The position numbers were made by a program, and so were the translations under genes. Below, one piece after another: positions 29,462 to 62,735 of a DNA stretch of 64,000 nucleotides. How positions within the stretch are numbered: position 1 is the first letter of the stretch; each line of letters starts with the position of its first letter. Source of the DNA: an uncultured Gammaproteobacteria bacterium (GTDB lineage Bacteria > Patescibacteriota > Microgenomatia > UBA8517). The notes beneath the pieces are model-generated. The model was given only the letters and a program-made list of their open reading frames with translations, was not told the origin of the DNA and made no database searches. The stretch lies in assembly GCA_965231135.1 (NCBI GenBank), contig OZ246419.1:184754-248753 (forward strand), in the 5' to 3' direction.

Positions 29462-30796
29462 ATGACTGGAAACGAAGTTCGTAAAAAATATTTAGAGTTT
29501 TTTGAAAAACGAGGACATAAAATAATTAAACCTGCTCCGCTTGTTTTGAAAGACGACCCAACTACTTTGTTTACGTCAGCTGGAATGCAACCATTAGTTC
29601 CATATCTTTTGGGTAAAGCTCATGATGAAGGTAAACGATTAACAGATTCTCAACCTTGTTTTAGATCTCAAGATATTGAAGAGGTTGGTGACAATCGACA
29701 CGATACGTTGTTTGAAATGCTTGGGAATTGGAGTTTAGGAGATTATTTCAAAAAGGAGCAAATCCCCTGGATTTGGGAATTTATTATAAAAGAACTTGGA
29801 CTTAATCCTGAAAATATTCATGTAACACTTTATGAAGGAAATGAAAGCGTACCTAAAGACGAGGAAACATATAAATTGTGGAGAGAATTGGGAATTTCTG
29901 ATGAAAGAATTCATTATTATAAAAATAAAAATTGGTGGAGTATTTCAGGGCCACCTGAAAATATGAGAGATGGAGAAGTAGGAGGACCTGATAGTGAAAT
30001 CTTTTTTGAGTTTGAAAACGTAAAGCACGATCCGAAATATGGTAAAGAATGTCATCCTAATTGTGACTGTGGTAGATTTTTGGAAATTGGGAATTCTGTT
30101 TTTATCCAGTACAAAAAGGTTGACGGGAAACTTGTAGAGCTTCCAAATAAAAATGTGGATTTTGGAGGAGGACTTGAGAGATTAACTGCTGCAACAAGTA
30201 ATGACCCTGATATTTTTAAGTCAGATTTATTTTGGCCTGTCATTGAAAAAATAGAAGAGCTTTCTGGTAAGAAATATGAAGATTATCAATCTTCAATGAG
30301 AATTATTACAGATCACATTAAGGCTTCAACATTTTTGATTGCAAACGGGGTCACCCCAAGTAATAAATTGCAAGGATATGTTTTAAGAAGATTGCTGCGA
30401 CGTGCGGCTCTTCAAATGAGAAATTTAAATATTGATTTGTCTCAAAAAGATTTTAATGAAATGTTTGTTATTGTAGAAAAAGTTTTTGATATTTATTCTT
30501 TATATTTGGATAAAAAAGATTTGGTAAAAGTGCAAGCTGAAATAACTTCTGAACTTGAAAAGTTTGGAAGAGCTTTGGAAAACGGAGTCAAAAGGATAAA
30601 TAAAACTGATATTAAAGATATAGATGAAAAATTTGCATTTGATTTGATGCAAAGTGAGGGATTTCCATTTGAAATCACACAAGAGTTGGTTGGAAAAAAA
30701 GGAGTTAATTTGGATAAAAATAAATTTGAAGAAATGCTTCGCGAACATCAGGAGCTTTCAAGGAAATCTTCAGAGGATAAATTTAAAATTAAATAA
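29462..30796 (+). CDS. alaS: alanyl-tRNA synthetase, catalytic plus tRNA-recognition domains only (no editing or C-Ala domains)
   Basis: FTSAGMQPL, FEMLGNWSLGDYFK and GGGLERL align to AlaRS residues 1 to about 460. The ORF stops at 444 aa, and the next gene is unrelated. Confidence 0.8.
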   Translation: MTGNEVRKKYLEFFEKRGHKIIKPAPLVLKDDPTTLFTSAGMQPLVPYLLGKAHDEGKRLTDSQPCFRSQDIEEVGDNRHDTLFEMLGNWSLGDYFKKEQIPWIWEFIIKELGLNPENIHVTLYEGNESVPKDEETYKLWRELGISDERIHYYKNKNWWSISGPPENMRDGEVGGPDSEIFFEFENVKHDPKYGKECHPNCDCGRFLEIGNSVFIQYKKVDGKLVELPNKNVDFGGGLERLTAATSNDPDIFKSDLFWPVIEKIEELSGKKYEDYQSSMRIITDHIKASTFLIANGVTPSNKLQGYVLRRLLRRAALQMRNLNIDLSQKDFNEMFVIVEKVFDIYSLYLDKKDLVKVQAEITSELEKFGRALENGVKRINKTDIKDIDEKFAFDLMQSEGFPFEITQELVGKKGVNLDKNKFEEMLREHQELSRKSSEDKFKIK

Positions 30797-30816: not shown

Positions 30817-32916
30817 ATGCAAGAGTACTTCTGGTCTTTATGTGTGGAGATAAACTCTCTTCAGGCTGCTATCTGGACTGTAAAAGACGGCAGTGCTCAG
30901 ATTGTTTGTACCTCAAATCCAGTAGTATATGAAGATGATGAGACTTTGGTGAAAGCTGCCGATGAAGTTTTATCAAACTGCGTACAACTTCTTCCTGAGG
31001 AAATTGCAGAACCGACAAAATGTGTCTTTGGAGTTTCAGCATCTTGGGTTGTTGATGGACAAATTGAAAAAGCACATCTTGAGAAAATAAAATTAATTTG
31101 CAATAAACTTTCTTTAACTCCAACAGGATTTGTAGTTTTATCTGAGGCAATTTCTTATTTTGAAAAATCAACGGAAAAAACTCCGCTTTCGGCAATTTTG
31201 GTGGGAGTTTATGCGCAGAGTATTGACGTCACGATATTTCGCCTTGGAAATTTAACAGGCTCTGTCAATGTTGCAAGAAGCACGAGTATTACTGACGATG
31301 TTACTGAAGGACTTGCAAGATTTGAGAATGGAGATGCGTTGCCTTCTAGATTTTTGGTTTATGGAAGTAATGACGGGGATTTGGAAGAATTTAAACAGGA
31401 GCTAATTAAAGCTGACTGGGAGCGTGCGAATGAAAATATTAAATTTTTACACACCCCACAAGTGGAAATTTTTAATACCACTGCAAAAATGGCGGCAATA
31501 AGCCTTGCTGGAGCTGCCGAGACAGGAACTGCAACTGAAATTGTTTTTGAGCAAGCCCTGGAAACTGCGAAAGAAAATAAGCCTGAGATGCTTAGCGAAG
31601 ACATCAATAATGTGACAGAGCCTGAAAGTAAAAAGAGTTTGTTCGAATCCGAATTCGACAGTGTTGATCCTGCATCGCTTGGATTTGGAAATGGCTTTAA
31701 TACAACTCCACAAGAAGTAAAAGAAAACATTCAAAATACAATTCAGAATTTTGAACCGCAAGTAATTAAAAATAAAATGCAGGACTTTAAATTGCCGAAA
31801 TTTAAAAACACTAGAATTTTAAAAGAAAACTTTTTGTTTGTAGGAGTAATAGCTTTGTTTTTTATTTTGGTAATTGGATTTTGCTATGTATGGTTTGTTC
31901 CAAAAGCAACAGTAACAATTTTCATATCTCCACAGAAAATAAATGAAACAAAACAGGTGAAGTTTGATACTAATGCAAGTGGAGTTAATGCAAGTACACT
32001 TACAATTCCTGCGAAAATTGCAATAGCTTCTGTCAGTTCTTCAAAAACAAAAAGCACAACTGGAACGACAGTTGTTGGAACTCCATCTAAAGGAAGCGTG
32101 ACTTTTTATAATGTGGGAGGTTCGACAACAATTTCTGCTGGGACAACTCTTTCTGCATCAAGCCTTAATTTTAGTTTGGATAATGATGTACAAATAGCGA
32201 GCGCTTCGGGAGCGGCAGCGGCTTCTTCTGCAAACGGAAATATAACAGCCCAACAAGTTGGTGCTGATTCAAATTTGGCAAGCGGAACTTATTTTACTGT
32301 AGGAAATTTTTCATCAAGCCTTATTCAGGCAAAAAATGGAAATGATTTGGCAGGAGGAAGCAGCCAGGAAGTTGCCGCTGTTTCAAGCGATGATGCAACT
32401 AGCCTTCAAAACGATTTGAAACAAGATCTGACAACAAACGGAACGAATAATTTGAAATCGCAACTGAATGGAGGAAATTTACTGATACCTGACTCTGTAG
32501 CTTTGACAATTAGTTCTTCGACTTTTGATAACAAAGTGGGAGCACAGGCAAGTACTGTAAAATTAAATGAAAGTGCAAAAGTTACTGGAACAACTTTTAC
32601 AAAAAGCGATATGAATAATTTGGCAAAACAAATTTTTGCAAGCGAAATTCCTAGCGGCTATACATTAACTGATGACGCAATTGATTATCAGCCAGGTAAA
32701 ACATCGACACAATTTATAATTAACTTGCTGCCTGTGACTGATGCAAACAAAATTAAACAGGAAATTTTAGGAAAGAATATAAATGATTTGAAAAATGTTT
32801 TGGGAAATATACAAGGGCTTGAGGATGTACAAGTAACGGGGACTCCAAAATTATTGCAGCTGCCCTTCTTGCCCCATGTAGTTGATCATATTACAATTCA
32901 GTTTGTGGCGAAATGA
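30817..32916 (+). CDS. large bitopic membrane protein: cytoplasmic N domain of about 330 aa, one TM helix, and an extracellular Ser/Thr/Gly-rich domain
   Basis: TM helix at FLFVGVIALFFILVIGFCYVWFV. The N domain is faintly FtsA/PilM-like. It is coupled to the sortase gene by a 4-nt overlap. Confidence 0.4.
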   Translation: MQEYFWSLCVEINSLQAAIWTVKDGSAQIVCTSNPVVYEDDETLVKAADEVLSNCVQLLPEEIAEPTKCVFGVSASWVVDGQIEKAHLEKIKLICNKLSLTPTGFVVLSEAISYFEKSTEKTPLSAILVGVYAQSIDVTIFRLGNLTGSVNVARSTSITDDVTEGLARFENGDALPSRFLVYGSNDGDLEEFKQELIKADWERANENIKFLHTPQVEIFNTTAKMAAISLAGAAETGTATEIVFEQALETAKENKPEMLSEDINNVTEPESKKSLFESEFDSVDPASLGFGNGFNTTPQEVKENIQNTIQNFEPQVIKNKMQDFKLPKFKNTRILKENFLFVGVIALFFILVIGFCYVWFVPKATVTIFISPQKINETKQVKFDTNASGVNASTLTIPAKIAIASVSSSKTKSTTGTTVVGTPSKGSVTFYNVGGSTTISAGTTLSASSLNFSLDNDVQIASASGAAAASSANGNITAQQVGADSNLASGTYFTVGNFSSSLIQAKNGNDLAGGSSQEVAAVSSDDATSLQNDLKQDLTTNGTNNLKSQLNGGNLLIPDSVALTISSSTFDNKVGAQASTVKLNESAKVTGTTFTKSDMNNLAKQIFASEIPSGYTLTDDAIDYQPGKTSTQFIINLLPVTDANKIKQEILGKNINDLKNVLGNIQGLEDVQVTGTPKLLQLPFLPHVVDHITIQFVAK

Positions 32917-35708: not shown

Positions 35709-35736
35709 TTGACAGACTTCAAAATACATGTATAAT
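35709..35736 (+). promoter_or_regulatory. sigma70-like promoter TTGACA-16-TATAAT upstream of rpoBC
   Basis: Near-perfect hexamers. A leader hairpin gtctac-ttggagt-gtagac follows at 35745-35763. Confidence 0.5.
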
Positions 35737-35778
35737 CGACCTTAGGTCTACTTGGAGTGTAGACATAATTCTCGTCTG

Positions 35779-38700
35779 ATGGCAAATAAACAAAATCGCC
35801 GCAATTTTGGCAGAACAGAAAACAATTTACCTGAGCTTGATTTGTCTTTGGTTCAAAGACAATCTTGGGATTGGTTTTTAAAAGAAGGAATTTCGGAAGA
35901 ACTTACAAATATTTCTCCAGTTGAAGATTTTGCAGGAAAAAATTGGGAACTTTCTTTTGGTAAACATACTCTTGAAGCCTCTCAAGTTACCCCAAAAGAA
36001 GCAAGAGAAAAAGGAATAACATACTCAACTCCATTTAAAGTCGAAACAACACTCACAAATAAAAGAACAGGAGCATCTGTCACACAGGAAGTTTTCTTTG
36101 GAAATATTCCACAAATGACAACTGTTGGAACATTTATTATTAATGGAATTGAAAGAACTGTTATTAACCAAATCGTTCGAAGCCCAGGAGCATATTTCTC
36201 AGGAACTTTGGATGCAGCAAGCGGCCGTATGCTTTATAAAGCAGAAATAAGACCACTTCATCACGGAAGCTGGCTTGAATTTGAAACTGGACGAAACGAT
36301 GTTATTTCAGCTCGCATTGATCGACGCCGAAAGGTAAATGCCGCAACCATACTTCGCGCTCTTGGAATTTATTCAAATGATGAAATTACAAGAATTTTTG
36401 CTGATGTGAATAAAGACGGAAATCATAATTATGTACAAAAGACTATTGAAAAAGATCCAACAAGAACAAGAGAAGATGCACTTCTTGAAATTTACAAGAA
36501 ACTTCGACCTGGAGAACCAGCTCTTTTGGATAATGCAGAAACACTTTTCCATAACCTTTTCTTTGATAACCGCCATTACGACTTAGGAAAAGTTGGAAGA
36601 TATAAAATTAATAAGAGATTAGGACTTAATGTTGAAAATAATAAACAAAACTGGGTACTTACAAAAGATGATATTGTCCAAACACTTCATTATTTAATTG
36701 GACTTCAAAATGGAATTGGACGAGTTGATGATATTGACCATCTTTCAAACAGACGCCTTCGATGTGTCGGGGAACTTGTTGCAACTCATGCATTTCGTAC
36801 AGGACTTTTAAGACTTGAAAGATCTATAAAAGAGAAAATGTCTTTGGTTTCTCAAGAAGAAAAACCAAATCCATCAGCTTTAATTAACGCAAGACCATTA
36901 ATCGCTTCTTTGAATGAATTTTTCAGAAGCAATCAGCTTTCAACAATACTTGATAATACAAATCCACTTTCAGAAATAGATAATTTACGAAGAGTATCTG
37001 TTTTAGGACCTGGAGGAATTAATCGAGAACGTGCGAGCTTTTCAATCCGAGACGTTAATCCTTCTCAATATGGAAGAATTGATCCTGTCAGGTCTCCAGA
37101 AGGAATGAACATTGGACTTGTTACTTATTTAACTCTTTATGCACGTGTAAACGAATTTGGATTTATTGAGACACCTTACAAAAAAGTTGATAATAGAAAA
37201 ATTACTAATGAAATTGTTTATTTAACTGCTGACGATGAAGAGAAATATTACATTACTCACAACGGAATTAATATTGATGACAGCGGAAAAATAACAGACG
37301 ACAGAGTTGCTATCCGATATGCAGGAAACTTTACAGAAGGATCTTCAAAGTTGGTTCAATATATCGATTTGACACCAAGGCAGGTATTTGGAGCATCTGC
37401 ATCTTTAATTCCTTTCCTTGACCACGATGAAGGAAACCGTGCTCTTATGGGAAGTAACATGCAATGTCAGGCTGTTCCACTTGTTGCGCCAAGCTCACCA
37501 GTTGTTGGAACAGGAATGGAAGCGACTGTTGCCTCTTCAATGGGAAGAGTTGTAAAAGCTGAATATCCAGGAACTGTTTCTTTTGTTGATGCAGACAAAA
37601 TTGAAATTAAACTTGATAAGCAAAGCTTGTCAGCTAAAGCTGATAAAAAATTGCCTGACGATGCTGTTTTGTCTAGAGATGGTAAAACAATTACTTATTA
37701 TTTGACTAAATTCTGGAGAACTTCACAATCAACTTGTTATAACCAGAAAGCTAAAGTAGTTCTCGGACAGAAATTAAACCCTGGAGACTTAATAATTGAT
37801 GGACCTGCTACAGAAGACGGAGAACTTGCACTGGGTCAAAATTTAGTTGTAGCTTATGCATCAATTTCCGGATACGGATTTGAAGATGCAATTTTGATTT
37901 CTGACAGAATAGTTAAGGATGACCTACTTACTTCAATTAACATTCGTGAATATACAGCTGACGTTGTTGAAACAAAACTTGGACCTGAAGTTGTTACAAA
38001 AGATATTCCAAACGTTTCTGAAGACCAATTAGCTAATTTGGCAAGTGATGGAATTGTTGTTGTCGGAGCTGAAGTTCATCCAAATGACATCTTGGTCGGA
38101 AAAATTGCACCAAAAGGTGAAATGGAACTTACTGCAGAAGAAAGACTTCTTCGTGCTATCTTTGGAGAGAAAGCAAGAGAAGTCCGAGATACATCACTTC
38201 GAGTGCCACACGGAGAAGAAGGAATTGTTATTGATGTACAAGTACTTAGCAAAGAAAAAGGAGATGAACTTGCACCTGGAGTAATATCTTCTGTAATTGT
38301 TAAAGTTGCACAACTTCGTAAAGTAACTGTAGGAGACAAAATTGCAGGGCGACATGGAAACAAAGGTGTTATTTCAAAAATAATGCCTGAAGCTGATATG
38401 CCTTACTTGCCAGATGGAACTCCAGTTGATTTGGTTATATCACCTCTTTCGGTACTTGCTCGTATGAATCTTGGACAATTACTCGAATGTCATTTGGGAT
38501 GGGCACTTGATAAGAATCATTCGAAAGCAAGCGTACCTGTCTTTGATAAGATTCCAGAAAGCAAGATTCACGATGAACTTAAAGAGGCTGGACTTCCAGT
38601 TTCTGGAAAAACAAGACTTATTGATGGAAGAACTGGAGAGGCACTTTCTGAAGATACAGTTGTTGGAATTGGATACATCATGAAGCTTAAGCACATGATT

Positions 38701-41700
38701 GAAGATAAGACACATGCACGTAGCACTGGTCCATATTCTCTTGTTACACAACAACCACTTGGAGGAAAAGCACAAATGGGAGGACAAAGACTTGGAGAAA
38801 TGGAAGTCTGGGCACTTGAAGCACATAGAGCAGCTCATACTTTGCAGGAAATGTTGACAATAAAATCTGATGATATTGTAGGACGCGCTGCAGCATTTGG
38901 AGCAATTGTTAAAGGACAGGAAATTCCTGAAGCTAAAATACCTGAAAGCTTTAAAGTATTGGTTCGAGAACTTAATGCACTTGGACTTGCAATTGATGTT
39001 GATGGAACAATGGCAGCAGTTACTGAAGAGCACACAACTGATGACGGAGTAGTAATCCAAGAAAAGAAACAACCAGTTACTGATCCACTTTTAAAGCTTC
39101 GCGAACTCGAAGATCTTAAATCTTTGCAAATTAAACTTGCCAGCGAAGGTGAAATAAGATCCTGGAGCCGAGGAGAAGTTACAAAACCAGAGACTATAAA
39201 CTACAGAACACTTAAACCTGAAAAAGACGGACTTTTTGATGAGAGAATATTTGGTCCAACACGCGACTGGGAATGTTACTGTGGAAAGTATAAAAGAATT
39301 CGTTATAAGGGAGTAATTTGCGATAAATGTGGAGTTGAAGTTACAGAAAGCAGAGTTCGACGAGAGAGAATGGGACATATTGCACTTGCAGCTCCTGTAG
39401 TTCATGTATGGTTTTTCAAAGGAGCACCAAGCAAAGTATCTTTACTTCTTGATTTGCCTCCTCGCGCTATTGAGCAAGTTGTCTATTTTGCAAGATATAT
39501 TGTTATGAGCGTTGATGATAAAAAGAGAAAAGAAGCAATTGATGTCTTAATAAAGACTCGAGAAGAAAAAATTAAAGAAACTCGAGAGATTTCTGCAGAA
39601 CGCCGAGAACTTATAAAACAAGACGGAGAAGATCGTAAAGGAAAGATAGCAAACAGAATCAAAGATAAAGAACAAGCAGCTCTTGCAATCAGCGAAGTTG
39701 ATCTTGATGTACGTAAGAAAGAAACTACTTTGGTTGAAGAAGAAAAAGCAACTATTGAGAAAACAACCGAACTTTTTGATCGCATGACTGATTTGGTTAA
39801 GAAAATTAGTCCTTTTGGATTTTTATCTGAGGATGAATACGATCAGCTTTCAACTTATGATGTATCTGATTTTCTTGAAGTAAAAATGGGAGCAGAAGCT
39901 CTTCTTATAGCCTTAAGCAAACTTAATTTGGATGAACTTTCAAAGAGTTTGCGAGCAGAACTTGAAGGATTGCAAGGAAAAGGTGCAAGATATTTGAAAG
40001 TTGCAAAAAGACTTAAGCTTATTGACGGACTTCGTGAGGCAAAAGTAAGCCCAACAAGCGTTATTTTGAAAGTAATCCCAATACTTCCACCAGATTTACG
40101 ACCAATGGTCCAACTTGCTGGAGGAAGATTTGCAACTTCTGACTTGAATGATTTATATAGACGCGTAATAAATAGAAATAACAGACTTAAGCATCTTATT
40201 GGCCTTGGTGCACCAGATATTATTTTAAGGAATGAAAAAAGAATGTTGCAGGAAGCTGTTGACTCTTTAATTGATGCATCTCAGCGAAAAGCTATGCGAC
40301 GTGGACGAGGAAGACTTGCACTTCGATCACTTTCTGACATGCTTAAAGGAAAGCAAGGAAGATTTAGAGCAAATCTTTTGGGTAAGCGTGTGGATTACTC
40401 CGGACGTTCAGTTATTATTGTTGGGCCTGAACTTAATTTGAATCAATGTGGACTTCCAAAGGAAATGGCGCTGGAAATGTTTAAGCCATTTGTACTTCGA
40501 GAAGTTATTAAGCGAGAAATTGCACCTAATGTGAAATCTGCAAAGAATTTACTTGAACGCCGACCACCAGAAGTGTTTGATATTTTGGAAGAAATTACAA
40601 AAGATCATCCAGTGTTACTTAATCGTGCACCAACACTTCATAAACTTGGAATTTTGGCATTTTACCCAGTTTTAATTGAAGGAAGCGCTATCAGACTTCA
40701 TCCAGCAGTATGTTCTGGGTTTGGAGCTGACTTTGACGGAGATCAAATGGCAGTACATGTCCCACTTTCTAAGAAAGCAATCGAAGAAGCTAAGACTCTT
40801 ATGATGTCTGATAAGAATTTACTTAAGACATCTGACGGATCGCCTGTTGCAACGCCCGCTTCAAAGGAAATGGCGCTTGGAGTTTATTATTTCACAAGTT
40901 TAGATACAAGAATGAAAGCTTCTGAAACAATTTTTGCTGACAAAGCTGAAGCAATATTTGCTTATCAAATTGGAAAAGTAGCTTTAAGACAACAAATCAA
41001 GGTCAAAGTTGATAATGAAGTAAATGAAACAACTGTTGGACGCATTTTATTTAATGAAATACTTCCAGAAGGATTTAGATTTGTAAACGAAAACGTTTCT
41101 TCTGGAATTATTAAAGATTTAGTCACTGAAGCTTATACAAAAGTATCTCAAGAGAGACTTGTAAAACTTATTGATGATATTAAGAACCTTGGATTTGTTG
41201 GAGGAACAATTTCAGGACTTTCATTTGCGGTGTCGGATGCTGCAATATTTGAAGGAAAAGCAAAAATTATTAAGGAAGCAGATAAAAAAGTCGACGAAAT
41301 TGAAAAAAGTTTCCATCAAGGTCTTATTACAAACGAAGAAAAGAAAAGAAGCATTCAACAAATCTGGATTGAAACAACTGAAGAAATTGCTGACAAAACC
41401 TGGAATGTAATACCTGCTGATTCACCAATTCGCACAGTTATTGATGCTAAAGTGGGACGCACTTCCCGTGACCAGATTAAGCAGCTTGGTGGAATGAGAG
41501 GTTTGGTCGTTGATCCGCTTGGAAAAATCGTTGAACTTCCTGTCAAAAGCAACTTTAGAGAAGGGCTTTCAGTTTTTGAATATGTTGCATCAGGACGCGG
41601 ATCTCGTAAAGGACTTACTGATACAGCTTTGAAAACAGCTGATGCAGGATATCTTACACGTCGATTAGTTGATGTAACTCATGATGTATTAATTCGTGAA

Positions 41701-42780
41701 GAAGACTGCGGAACAAAAGACGGAATTCTTATTAAAAAATCAGTACGAGGAGGAAGTTTCTACAAGAGAATTTTTGGAAGATTTGATACAAACGGAGAAC
41801 TTATTGATGAAAAGCGAGCAAAAGAACTGGCAGATGATGCAAATGTTACAGAATTTGTAGTTCGTTCCCCTCTTACATGTAAGACAAGATTTGGAGTTTG
41901 CCAGAAGTGTTATGGATGGGACCTTTCAAATAAACAGGTTGTAGAACTTGGAATGCCAATTGGAGTTATTGCGGCACAATCAATTGGAGAACCTGGAACT
42001 CAGCTTACACTTAGAACCAAACATAGCGGAGGAGTTGTTGGAGCTGACGTTACACAAGGACTTCCAAGAGTTGAAGAGTTATTTGAATCTCGTATTCCAA
42101 AAACAGTATCGCCAATTTCTGAAATAGCTGGAAAAGTATCTATCAAAGAGAGCGAAGACGGGAATGTTGTTAAAGTCACAAGTGTTAATACCAAACCAAA
42201 AGAAGAGCGAGAATATATTATCGCAAAGACAAACAAGATTAGTGTTGAGGATGGACAACTTATCGATGCAGGAACACAACTAGCTAGCGGATACCTTGAT
42301 ATTAAAGAAATATTACAAGTACGAGGACTTGGAGCAGCACAAGAATATTTGGTAAATGAATTACAGGCAGTTTATGAATCACAGGGAATTTCAATTAATG
42401 ATCGCCATTTTGAAATCATTGTCCGCAAGATGTGTGATACAGTCCGCATTTTGACAAGCGGAGACAGCAGATTCTTGCCAGAAGAGCTTACTGATAAATC
42501 AACATTTGAAGAAGAAGTTGAAAAAGTTATCGCATCAGGCGGAGAAGCAGCAACTGCAAGACAAATTATACTTGGAGTCACAAAGAGAGCTTTGTACACA
42601 AACAGCTGGCTATCTAGCGCATCTTTCGAACAGACAACTGATGTTTTGGCCGAGTCAGCACTAGAAGGAAGCAAAGATCGCTTACTTGGACTTAAAGAGA
42701 ATGTTATTATTGGCCGCCTAATTCCAATTGATCCAAAGAGAGCGGCTCTTCATGGACAAGCTGAGCCTGCTGCTGTATAA
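35779..42780 (+). CDS. rpoBC: fused DNA-directed RNA polymerase beta-beta' subunit (rpoB-rpoC in one ORF)
   Basis: The ORF is continuous. The beta C terminus ([27 protein letters not shown]...[17 protein letters not shown]) joins, through a linker of about 45 aa, the beta' N terminus ([35 protein letters not shown] plus the Zn finger CYCGKYKR...CDKCGVEV). The start is taken at the first ATG (MANKQ); the track ORF begins 27 nt upstream at a TTG. Confidence 0.9.
37616..37646 (+). repeat. in-frame copy of the 31-nt intergenic palindromic element, inside rpoB
   Basis: ATAAGCAAAGCTTGTCAGCTAAAGCTGATAA encodes [10 protein letters not shown]. It matches the rpsO-pnp spacer element at 30 of 31 positions. 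Confidence 0.6.
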
Positions 42781-42788
42781 TTTAGCCT

Positions 42789-43241
42789 ATGCCAACGATT
42801 GCACAATTAATTAGAAAACCAAGAAGCAAAAAACCAACAAAGCAAAAGGCAACGTCTTTAAAATGGTGGTTTAATGCAAAGGACAGAAAATTTAAAAGAG
42901 AGTCTTCTCCTTTCAAAAGAGGAGTGGTGCTATCTGTGCGTACAATGACTCCAAAGAAACCAAATTCAGCTCTTAGAAAAGTGGCAAGAGTTCGACTTTC
43001 AAATAAACAAGAAGTTACAGCTTATATTATGGGTGAAGGACATGAGCTTGCAGAACATGCAATTGTTTTAGTTCGCGGAGGCCGTGTCAAAGATTTACCA
43101 GGAGTTAAATATCATATAGTACGAGGCAAAAACGATACAACAGGAGTTGTTGGACGAAAGACTGCAAGAAGCCGATATGGTACAAAGAGGGAAGGAGGAT
43201 CCGCCAATGCGAAGACAGCAAGCGCGAGTGCGACAGCTTAA
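42789..43241 (+). CDS. rpsL: 30S ribosomal protein S12 with a short C-terminal extension
   Basis: [19 protein letters not shown] and [17 protein letters not shown]. The tail overlaps the rpsG start by 35 nt. Confidence 0.9.
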
Positions 43242-46440: not shown

Positions 46441-46941
46441 ATGAAAAGATCTTCAATTCCTAAGGAATTAGAACGTGAAGTTCTAGTTGAAGCTGGTCAC
46501 AGATGTGCGATTCCTACTTGTCAGAGAACTCCCGTAGAAATAGCTCATATAGATCCATGGTTTAAAGTGAAAGAGCATAGATTTGAAAATTTGATTGCTC
46601 TTTGTCCAAATTGTCATGATAGATATGATAAAAAACATGAAATTGATAGGAAATCTATGCTTCGATATAAAGCTAATCTTTCGGTAATTAATAATAGATA
46701 TGGCGACCTAGAGAAAAGAATACTTACACTTTTTGCTGAAAGTCCAAATGATGAATTTGTTTGGGTTGTTGGAGGATTGGATATATTATTAATGTATTTA
46801 TTGAGAGATGGATTATTAGTTCCTTCAGGTAAGGATAGTGGAGTTATACTTTCCGGTATTCCTTCTGCTAAAGAATATCGTTTGACTACAAAAGGCAGAG
46901 GGTTTGTTAATAACTGGGTTTCACCAAGAAAATTAAGTTGA
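46441..46941 (+). CDS. HNH endonuclease
   Basis: EAGHRCAIPTC...EIAHIDPW...NLIALCPNCHDRYD is a Cys4 HNH core. A C-terminal domain of about 80 aa follows. Confidence 0.7.
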   Translation: MKRSSIPKELEREVLVEAGHRCAIPTCQRTPVEIAHIDPWFKVKEHRFENLIALCPNCHDRYDKKHEIDRKSMLRYKANLSVINNRYGDLEKRILTLFAESPNDEFVWVVGGLDILLMYLLRDGLLVPSGKDSGVILSGIPSAKEYRLTTKGRGFVNNWVSPRKLS

Positions 46942-61811: not shown

Positions 61812-62735
61812 GTGAATTTTATGGAGCCAATGTTTGAAATTACAGAAGAAAAACAAGGAGATAATTATTCTAAATTTATAATTTCTCCTCTTCCATATGG
61901 TTATGGAAATACTTTGGGAGTAGCCCTTCGCAGGGTTTTACTTTCGAGTCTTAAAGGATCAGCTATTACTCAAGTTAAGATTGCTGGAGTTAAACATCAA
62001 TTTTCAAGCCTTACAGGAATGAAAGAAGATGTCTTAGACTTTTTGCTTAATCTTAAAAAAGTGAGATTTACTAATGTAAGCGAAACTGCGAAAGCAACAC
62101 TTGATGTAACAACAAGCGGTGAAGTGAAAGCAGGCGACATTAAAGTCTCAGGAGGAGTTAAAGTAGCAAATCCTGATTTAGTTTTGGCAAACCTTTCAAA
62201 AGGAGCAAAATTATCAGCAGCCTTAACTATTGAAAGTGGAGTTGGATATTCTCCATTTGAAGAAAGAGTCAAAGAGGGCGTTGGAGTTATTGCTCTTGAT
62301 GCGCTTTTTTCACCAATTGTTCGAGTTAACTACAAAGTTGAAGAAACTCGTGTTGGACGAATTACCAATTACGATAAACTTTCAATGGAAGTCTGGACTG
62401 ATGGAACAATTAAACCAAATGAAGCAGTAAAAGCTGCATCAAATATTTTAGTTTCTTGCTTTAATCAAATCGTTAACCCTAAAGAAGTTAGCAAAAAAGT
62501 TGATGCTGAAGTAAAGACAGTTTCCGGACTTGGACAAGTTGGAAAACTTTCAGTTGAAGAAATCGGACTTCCAACAAGAGTAGCTAATGCTCTTGCAAAA
62601 GCCGGTTATGAAACAGTTGAAAAACTTGTTAATGCCAAACGCGAAGATTTAATGCATGTACGAAATCTTGGAGAGAAATCTTTGAAGATAATCCGCGCAG
62701 CATTAATGGAGAAAGGAGTGGAGTTTAATGTATAA
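61812..62735 (+). CDS. rpoA: DNA-directed RNA polymerase alpha subunit
   Basis: N-terminal dimerisation domain plus a C-terminal domain (EEIGLPTRVANAL), 307 aa. Confidence 0.9.
   Translation: MNFMEPMFEITEEKQGDNYSKFIISPLPYGYGNTLGVALRRVLLSSLKGSAITQVKIAGVKHQFSSLTGMKEDVLDFLLNLKKVRFTNVSETAKATLDVTTSGEVKAGDIKVSGGVKVANPDLVLANLSKGAKLSAALTIESGVGYSPFEERVKEGVGVIALDALFSPIVRVNYKVEETRVGRITNYDKLSMEVWTDGTIKPNEAVKAASNILVSCFNQIVNPKEVSKKVDAEVKTVSGLGQVGKLSVEEIGLPTRVANALAKAGYETVEKLVNAKREDLMHVRNLGEKSLKIIRAALMEKGVEFNV

Follow-up and report, generated by a model that had tools for sequence, protein, structure and literature searches.

A clade-wide natural fusion of rpoB and rpoC in Woesebacteria and the apparent pre-fusion state in its unfused sister clade

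In the 64,000-nucleotide stretch of contig OZ246419.1 (assembly GCA_965231135.1) that was analyzed here and is called the window in the following, the genes for the β and β' subunits of RNA polymerase, rpoB and rpoC, appear as one continuous reading frame. Naturally fused β and β' subunits have been described from Helicobacteraceae/Wolinella and from Wolbachia, and an rpoB-rpoC fusion made synthetically has proved functional. The locus hence raises the question whether the two genes are truly one in this member of the Woesebacteria and, if they are, what the product would be, how the fusion came about and why it has persisted. The reading that we arrive at, and to which we give a probability of about 85%, is that of a genuine and functional rpoBC gene encoding one polypeptide of ~260 kDa, in which a complete β subunit would be tethered by a 24-residue linker to a complete β' subunit.

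The fused gene occupies positions 35779..42780 of the + strand (2333 codons plus TAA, start codon ATG 35779) within a single open frame, 35752-42780, whose translation contains neither a stop nor a change of frame. The start at ATG 35779 agrees with the N-termini of homologues (M..KRRNFG..) and with the public protein HWA52200.1 (P0001; 2333 amino acids (aa)), which equals the window protein with 100% identity and coverage but is annotated publicly as just "subunit beta'". The length of 2342 codons given in an earlier, sequence-only reading of the locus is obtained only if one counts from TTG 35752 of the mechanically called open reading frame (ORF), and not from the ATG. The β module (35779..39006, + strand, aa 1-1076) matches the family model NF001616 with 1398 bits (cut-off 896), such that aa 6-1074 correspond to positions 2-1094 of 1096, and TIGR02013 with 1379.6 bits (cut-off 801). 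Pfam assigns Rpb2 domains 1, 2, 3, 45, 6 and 7 to this half, and in a PDB search the β half of a junction query matches the C-terminal part of solved β chains. The β' module (39079..42777, + strand, aa 1101-2333) matches TIGR02386 with 1464.2 bits (cut-off 963.5; aa 1116-2316, positions 2-1137 of 1147) and carries Rpb1 domains 1, 2, 3 and 5, an intact zinc ribbon with its four Cys (39274-39330, + strand, aa 1166-1184) and the catalytic motif ADFDGDQ (40726-40746, + strand, aa 1650-1656), in which the three Asp of DFDGD (aa 1651-1655) are intact. With full-length matches to two essential proteins, an ORF of 7 kb cannot have arisen by chance. The locus thus shows what defines a natural β-β' fusion, namely one frame with β followed by β' and no stop or frameshift in between, and we regard it as confirmed that rpoB and rpoC are genuinely one gene here, with both subunits complete. 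The sequence-only reading, which had proposed the fusion, was right in this central point: the C-terminus of β and the N-terminus of β' are both intact, and every peptide that it cited is found in the translation.

The same arrangement is found well beyond the window. In a full-length search of 5.8 billion protein clusters, ~80 fused proteins ranked above the first unfused one, and at least 62 full-length fused representatives (2308-2366 aa, 69-85% identical) could be collected from NCBI, JGI, ENA and Logan assemblies. The junction is in frame in all 62 of these representatives although the length of the linker varies, and these independently sequenced relatives form one clade. The suggestion to look for the fusion in sister genomes was hence borne out by at least 62 independently assembled relatives. 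It has to be noted that the full-length query listed no unfused Woesebacteria, so that its top list overstated how exclusively fused the neighborhood is; the word-based preselection of 8000 candidates can cause single-domain proteins closely related to a fused query to be missed.

Between the family-model matches of the two halves, ~41 aa are left uncovered (1075-1115), and it is this stretch outside the models to which the earlier estimate of a linker of ~45 aa corresponds. By comparison with relatives, the true variable spacer is shorter and comprises the 24 Glu/Lys-rich residues aa 1077-1100 (39007..39078, + strand), followed by a retained β' N-terminus of 13 aa (39079..39117, + strand, aa 1101-1113). 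The latter is a gap-free relic with a column identity of 0.53, in which Thr1101 (codon ACT) occupies the place of the β' start Met of the unfused sister clade (MEQLADLKNLTDF); in solved β' chains, homology begins at ~aa 1109, the equivalent of residue 13 of E. coli β'. Among 60 fused relatives, the length of the linker ranges from 3 to 55 aa with a median of 21, and its composition is 21% E and 13% K. Across the 62 fused relatives, column identity in the linker amounts to 0.23 with 71% gaps, as opposed to 0.92 in the β flank (aa 1000-1070) and 0.90 in the β' flank; the conserved flanks read ...ELN[AS]LGLA...EG on the β side and DPLxxLxxLEDFxSLQIRLAS on the β' side. Judged from this comparison, the linker probably derives from an acidic C-terminal tail of β together with a tiny intergenic spacer.

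Two explanations would deprive the long frame of its meaning, either because the genes are in truth separate or because their product is. It is an obvious concern that the long ORF might stem from the loss of a stop codon, from a frameshift or from a chimeric join, as the window belongs to a metagenome-assembled genome (MAG) and the window protein, looked up by exact match, did not turn up on a second contig. An artefact, however, would have to recur at the same in-frame junction in the other representatives, i.e. in four sources and down to 69% identity, and it would have to explain why the fused proteins cluster as a clade apart from unfused relatives and why the gene order on both sides matches that of relatives. 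The exchange of Met for Thr at the old β' start and the remodeled β tail lie beyond any single error, and no single sequencing or assembly error makes a pattern in which a variable linker stands between conserved flanks. We consider an artefact next to negligible as an explanation and effectively refuted, on the strength of conservation and not of mapped reads. The second explanation accepts the fused ORF but assumes that two proteins are made from it, either through internal initiation, for example at Met1078 (ATG 39010), or through cleavage of the linker. The linker of the window indeed contains one Met, and being exposed and probably disordered it would in principle be accessible to proteases. 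Yet only 16 of 60 relatives have a Met in their linker, the closest ones (P0002 and P0003) have none, and inspection by eye revealed neither a Shine-Dalgarno-like motif before ATG 39010 nor a start codon after the sole GGAG in the linker. In addition, the ancestral β' Met is gone in the fused gene, whereas the unfused sister keeps a GGAGG 13-23 nt before its β' ATG. The Helicobacter fusion is, moreover, reportedly present in the cell as one large polypeptide. Production of two separate proteins from the fused gene is hence very improbable, and a single rpoBC product remains the reading that we follow.

For such a product, the polymerase core would consist of α2 and the β-β' chain, with α supplied by a separate rpoA gene (61812..62735, + strand; PF01193, PF01000 and PF03118, i.e. 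the dimerization and insert domains of the N-terminal domain plus the C-terminal domain). In every bacterial polymerase of solved structure, the C-terminus of β and the N-terminus of β' are adjacent within the clamp. With the termini this close, a tether would leave the fold undisturbed, and from its composition the linker can be imagined as a flexible, acidic and lysine-rich one. The tether would fix the ratio of β to β' at 1:1 and would turn the last assembly step, the joining of α2-β and β', into an intramolecular one, a proposal that we infer from the established structure of RNA polymerase and from the engineered and Helicobacter fusions. Fusions in another group of Patescibacteria (P0067-76) essentially lack a linker (motif spacing of 103, compared to 130 here), which indicates that the two termini can even be joined directly. 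Among the 60 PDB chains in the list for the junction query, not one spans both halves, and since a fused chain should rank at the top of such a list, there is apparently no solved structure of a natural fusion.

Upstream of the gene, a predicted sigma-70-type promoter (TTGACA-16 nt-TATAAT, 35709..35736, + strand) agrees with the consensus at 12 of 12 positions. TTGACA and TATAAT are found at the same place in a fused (L083) and in an unfused relative (L001), and TTGACA also in the more distant L082. From these data, rpoBC appears to be a transcription unit of its own that follows mltG and not rplJL; in the window, rpoBC has no linkage to rplKAJL. Within the stretch 35709-35765, the promoter is followed by a conserved leader motif, (T)AGG(C/T)(G/C)TAC, which is common to L083 and L001 and partly shared by L082. 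A hairpin in the 5' leader (35746-35764) was considered as a further feature and rejected, as it is no better than shuffled sequence (z = -0.82).

How the fusion may have come about is suggested by relatives in which the genes are still separate. Scanning genome contigs with a junction peptide of 266 aa lacked specificity, since nearly all bacteria have rpoB next to rpoC, and there was no fused locus among the 80 loci that were returned; that all 80 are in the same frame reflects a read-through ranking bias of tblastn and is unusable as a frequency. The scan did, however, yield the Candidatus Woesebacteria UBA8517 locus L001, which is unfused, ~70% identical over β and β', and identical to the window in gene order (sortase, ruvX, mltG, rpoB, rpoC, rpsL, rpsG). 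In L001, an rpoB of 1122 aa ends with TAA and is followed after 12 nt by an rpoC of 1240 aa in the same frame. Stand-alone β' proteins of this type (~1240 aa, 75-99% identical to that of L001) are known from at least 120 representatives, some of which are named Woesebacteria or Microgenomates. In three further sister loci, which were chosen by β' alone, the spacers measure 3, 2 and 14 nt, and one of the three is in frame; the in-frame loci, L001 and L084, have a single TAA between rpoB and rpoC. The synteny mltG-rpoB-rpoC-rpsL-rpsG is the same in the sister loci. The unfused β ends in an acidic tail of ~45 residues, which is partly conserved (AKAAGAE.VAT.EL..GPMEVEE) and in which the GGAGG upstream of the β' ATG is embedded, and the head of the unfused β', MEQLADLKNLTDF, lines up collinearly with the fused protein at aa 1101-1113. 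As such, the unfused Woesebacteria (L001; GW2011_GWE1) resemble the window in identity, synteny, promoter position and β' head, but differ from it by the stop codon and a gap of 2-14 nt, a longer β tail and a β' Met that is kept together with its GGAGG.

Taken as a picture of the state before the fusion, these loci suggest the following course of events. In the ancestor of one subclade of Woesebacteria, rpoB and rpoC would have lain 2-14 nt apart, as they do in the unfused sister, and, with both in the same frame, losing the rpoB stop codon would have joined them into one. The acidic, disordered β tail and the spacer would then have become the linker after shortening and decay, whereas the first 12-13 residues of β' were presumably kept, with the useless β' start Met changing to Thr and the internal start being lost. 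Most likely, the fusion hence arose once in the clade of the window by loss of the rpoB stop, with the individual steps deduced from comparison of present-day loci.

Trees were calculated by neighbor-joining from Kimura-corrected distances with 100 bootstrap replicates. In the tree of β plus β' (2205 columns), a bootstrap support of 100 unites the 62 fused proteins as a clade, and L001 is its sister, likewise with 100. If 48 unfused Woesebacteria are added in a tree of β' (1178 columns), the fused proteins group with a support of 89, the unfused ones with 100 and both together with 100. For the clade to which the window belongs, the fusion can thus be regarded as a shared derived character. 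The idea that it could serve as a phylogenetic marker gains weight from this result, as fused and unfused Woesebacteria are reciprocally monophyletic in the neighbor-joining trees.

With respect to the known natural fusions, the RpoBC proteins of Helicobacteraceae/Wolinella (NF007172, ~2890 aa) are likewise encoded by a single gene with β and β' in frame, and likewise throughout a clade. The window protein is, however, ~550 aa shorter, does not contain the proteobacterial insertions and comes from another phylum, and its gene stands behind mltG whereas the Helicobacteraceae show an rplKAJL-rpoBC arrangement. Against the equivalog model NF007172, it reaches 2032 bits in 6 separate stretches, compared to a cut-off of 5372 bits. 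The Wolbachia RpoBC (NF011417, ~2839 aa) is similarly a natural fusion in a reduced genome, but belongs to the Alphaproteobacteria and is of independent origin; here, the window protein reaches 1917.5 bits, again in 6 separate stretches, with a cut-off of 4632 bits. Common descent with the fusions of the Helicobacter or Wolbachia type finds no support either, as the nearest outgroup of the fused clade is a large unfused clade of Woesebacteria; since the trees were built without Helicobacter or Wolbachia sequences, independence rests on this unfused outgroup and on the phylum-level distance. The fusion of the window therefore works like those of Helicobacter and Wolbachia but is a member of neither family, because its scores lie far below the cut-offs and its nearest relatives are unfused. 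An engineered β-β' fusion of E. coli has the same order of subunits and gives an active polymerase, but it is artificial and has a different linker (Severinov et al., 1997).

The sequence-only reading had further held that such fusions are rare outside Helicobacter and Wolbachia, and this has to be revised. Among the best 150 matches to a 401-aa junction query, searched against 1.84 billion representatives at 50% identity, there are 17 proteins of more than 2000 aa, and in several of these 17 one matched stretch crosses the junction; several fused lineages of Patescibacteria are found as well. This census of wider fusions rests on lengths and matched ranges, as regular expressions for the junction missed most divergent proteins. 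Fusions outside the Patescibacteria include those of Mycoplasma wenyonii (WP_014849752.1, 2648 aa), a deltaproteobacterial MAG (MDR1577725.1), Candidatus Magnetobacterium casensis (P0077, 2710 aa) and Omnitrophica (P0079), and the fused groups P0064-66, P0067-76 and P0070 of the Patescibacteria form separate branches among unfused relatives. All of these natural fusions share the order β-then-β' with the window, but their junctions are unrelated in sequence and different in length. One of the groups makes up a second fused clade of Patescibacteria (P0067-69, P0072, P0074-76; ~2250 aa), which is essentially linkerless (…NIQPLYENETDRKDSFSALKISVAS) and in which the gene stands in the context ftsW, mltG, rpoBC, rpsF, ssb, rplK (P0075 = L081:5001-11771). 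A search of an incomplete literature library found no paper describing a fusion in Patescibacteria or Woesebacteria. The kind of fusion is hence known and recurrent, whereas the clade-wide case in Woesebacteria with its preserved pre-fusion state is new to the literature that we found.

Several points weigh against this account as a whole. Just four unfused junctions were read as DNA, of which two are not in frame; the trees are neighbor-joining and not maximum-likelihood trees; and an AlphaFold2 model of the 401-aa junction fragment, in which the linker is a coil with a predicted local distance difference test score (pLDDT) below 50, agrees only weakly with a disordered linker, as the whole model is too poor to say much (pLDDT 59, predicted template modeling score 0.29). 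Most important with regard to the history of the locus, the fused proteins P0064-66 (~60% identity, same synteny) branch outside the pair of fused and unfused Woesebacteria with a support of 100 in both trees. From this position, one could argue that the fusion is older and took place before P0064-66, the clade of the window and the unfused Woesebacteria diverged, with the genes of the unfused clade having been split again later through gain of a stop and a start in the linker. One fusion plus one fission costs as much as two fusions, and splitting is tolerated at least in Helicobacter, where cells with experimentally separated subunits are reportedly viable. On the other hand, the junctions of P0064/65 (…VEEKNEEEQKEKQIVDFSALKIKLAS) are shorter and do not contain the DPLxxLxxLED found both in the core fused clade and in the unfused β' head, the partly conserved unfused tail with its embedded GGAGG looks ancestral and not newly evolved, and more distant Patescibacteria are unfused. 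A fusion followed by a re-split is thus possible but unlikely, and two separate fusions, one in the clade of the window and one in P0064-66, are favored because the junction sequences differ and because the unfused tail and its GGAGG appear to be ancestral.

A related question is why the fusion has been kept. Once the internal start is lost, a new stop codon in the linker would abolish β' and be lethal, which makes the fusion self-locking. Retention alone is hence no proof of an advantage and fits a near-neutral character, a view that draws on the said viability of Helicobacter with separated subunits. Alternatively, the fusion could have been retained as an adaptation, for instance because a 1:1 stoichiometry or a chaperone-independent assembly is of use in a very small genome. 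The recurrence of fusions in lineages with reduced genomes (at least 3-4 groups of Patescibacteria, Wolbachia and Mycoplasma wenyonii) and the maintenance of the fused state across a deep clade would be in line with this idea. Fusions are, however, also found in the non-reduced Magnetobacterium, Omnitrophica, deltaproteobacterial MAG and Helicobacter, a large sister clade of similar lifestyle is unfused, and the ratchet alone already predicts retention. From our point of view, adaptive retention in the clade of the window is therefore doubtful. Still more speculative, and to us rather improbable, is the wider notion that the β-β' fusion represents a recurrent and selected solution in ultra-small or host-dependent bacteria, with at least 3-4 origins in Patescibacteria in addition to those in Wolbachia and the haemotropic Mycoplasma. 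If it were true, the tether would free core assembly from helpers that are lost in reduced genomes, or would buffer stoichiometry at very low copy number, and the fused and unfused sister clades of Woesebacteria would constitute a natural experiment.

Apart from the fusion, the β' half of the window protein differs from the common pattern at its active site, where the otherwise universally conserved motif NADFDGD reads GADFDGD, with Gly at aa 1649 (codon GGA, 40723-40725). The Asn of this motif contacts the ribose hydroxyls of the incoming nucleoside triphosphate (NTP) and contributes to the discrimination between ribo- and deoxyribo-NTPs; it corresponds to N458 in E. coli β' and to N479 in Rpb1 of Pol II. 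GGA is at least two base changes away from an Asn codon (AAY). The exchange is found in 8 of 63 fused proteins (among the closest relatives, P0002-5, P0012, P0014 and P0026), 5 of 120 unfused Woesebacteria and one Omnitrophica protein, and the Asn is retained in all 80 loci with a readable motif (86 fetched). This change may merit more attention than the fusion. A second peculiarity of β' is that the Rpb1_1 match extends over 422 residues on a profile of 312 positions, corresponding to an insertion of ~110 aa at aa ~1230-1420. A Lys/Glu-rich segment within this insertion (39517-39657) is predicted as one long helix with a pLDDT of 86-91 in an otherwise poor model. The Lys/Glu-rich insertion is conserved in the aligned fused relatives and looks like a lineage-specific one.

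Some of the neighboring genes also deserve mention. Directly downstream of rpoBC, ribosomal protein S12 (42789-43241, 150 aa) is matched by a model of 124 positions on residues 1-135, and carries a small insertion internally and ~15 extra residues at its C-terminus; the proteins of relatives measure 142-156 aa. Further downstream, an ORF of 166 aa with an HNH endonuclease domain (46441-46941) lies between fusA and tuf in an otherwise conserved str operon, and the relative L086 has a DUF559/MTES_1575 endonuclease-like gene between rpsG and fusA, which suggests that selfish nuclease genes were inserted repeatedly at this spot of the operon. Upstream, the ORF for alanyl-tRNA synthetase (29462-30796, 444 aa) covers the catalytic domain only (PF01411 positions 1-436 of 552), with the next ORF starting 21 nt after this short alaS; the gene of relatives at this place encodes 574-582 aa and also has a tRNA_SAD match. 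Between alaS and the sortase gene, there is a protein of 699 aa with a weak Baseplate_J-like match (30817-32916), and the order large protein, sortase, ruvX, mltG, rpoB(C) is kept in L082 and L083. Rfam gave no match anywhere in the window.

Overall, the present analysis shows that the long ORF is biology and not a MAG artefact. This matters for annotation, since public records have for years listed the sequences as 'subunit beta' or "subunit beta'", and likewise for marker-gene pipelines designed around rpoB and rpoC as two genes. It leaves the understanding of RNA polymerase function unchanged, but widens the distribution of β-β' fusions well beyond Helicobacter and Wolbachia. For the organisms labelled Woesebacteria, the fusion offers a clean and cheap character by which they can be divided, and as the sister loci keep the apparent pre-fusion state, the clade is among the clearer examples where the route to a subunit fusion may still be read from sequence.

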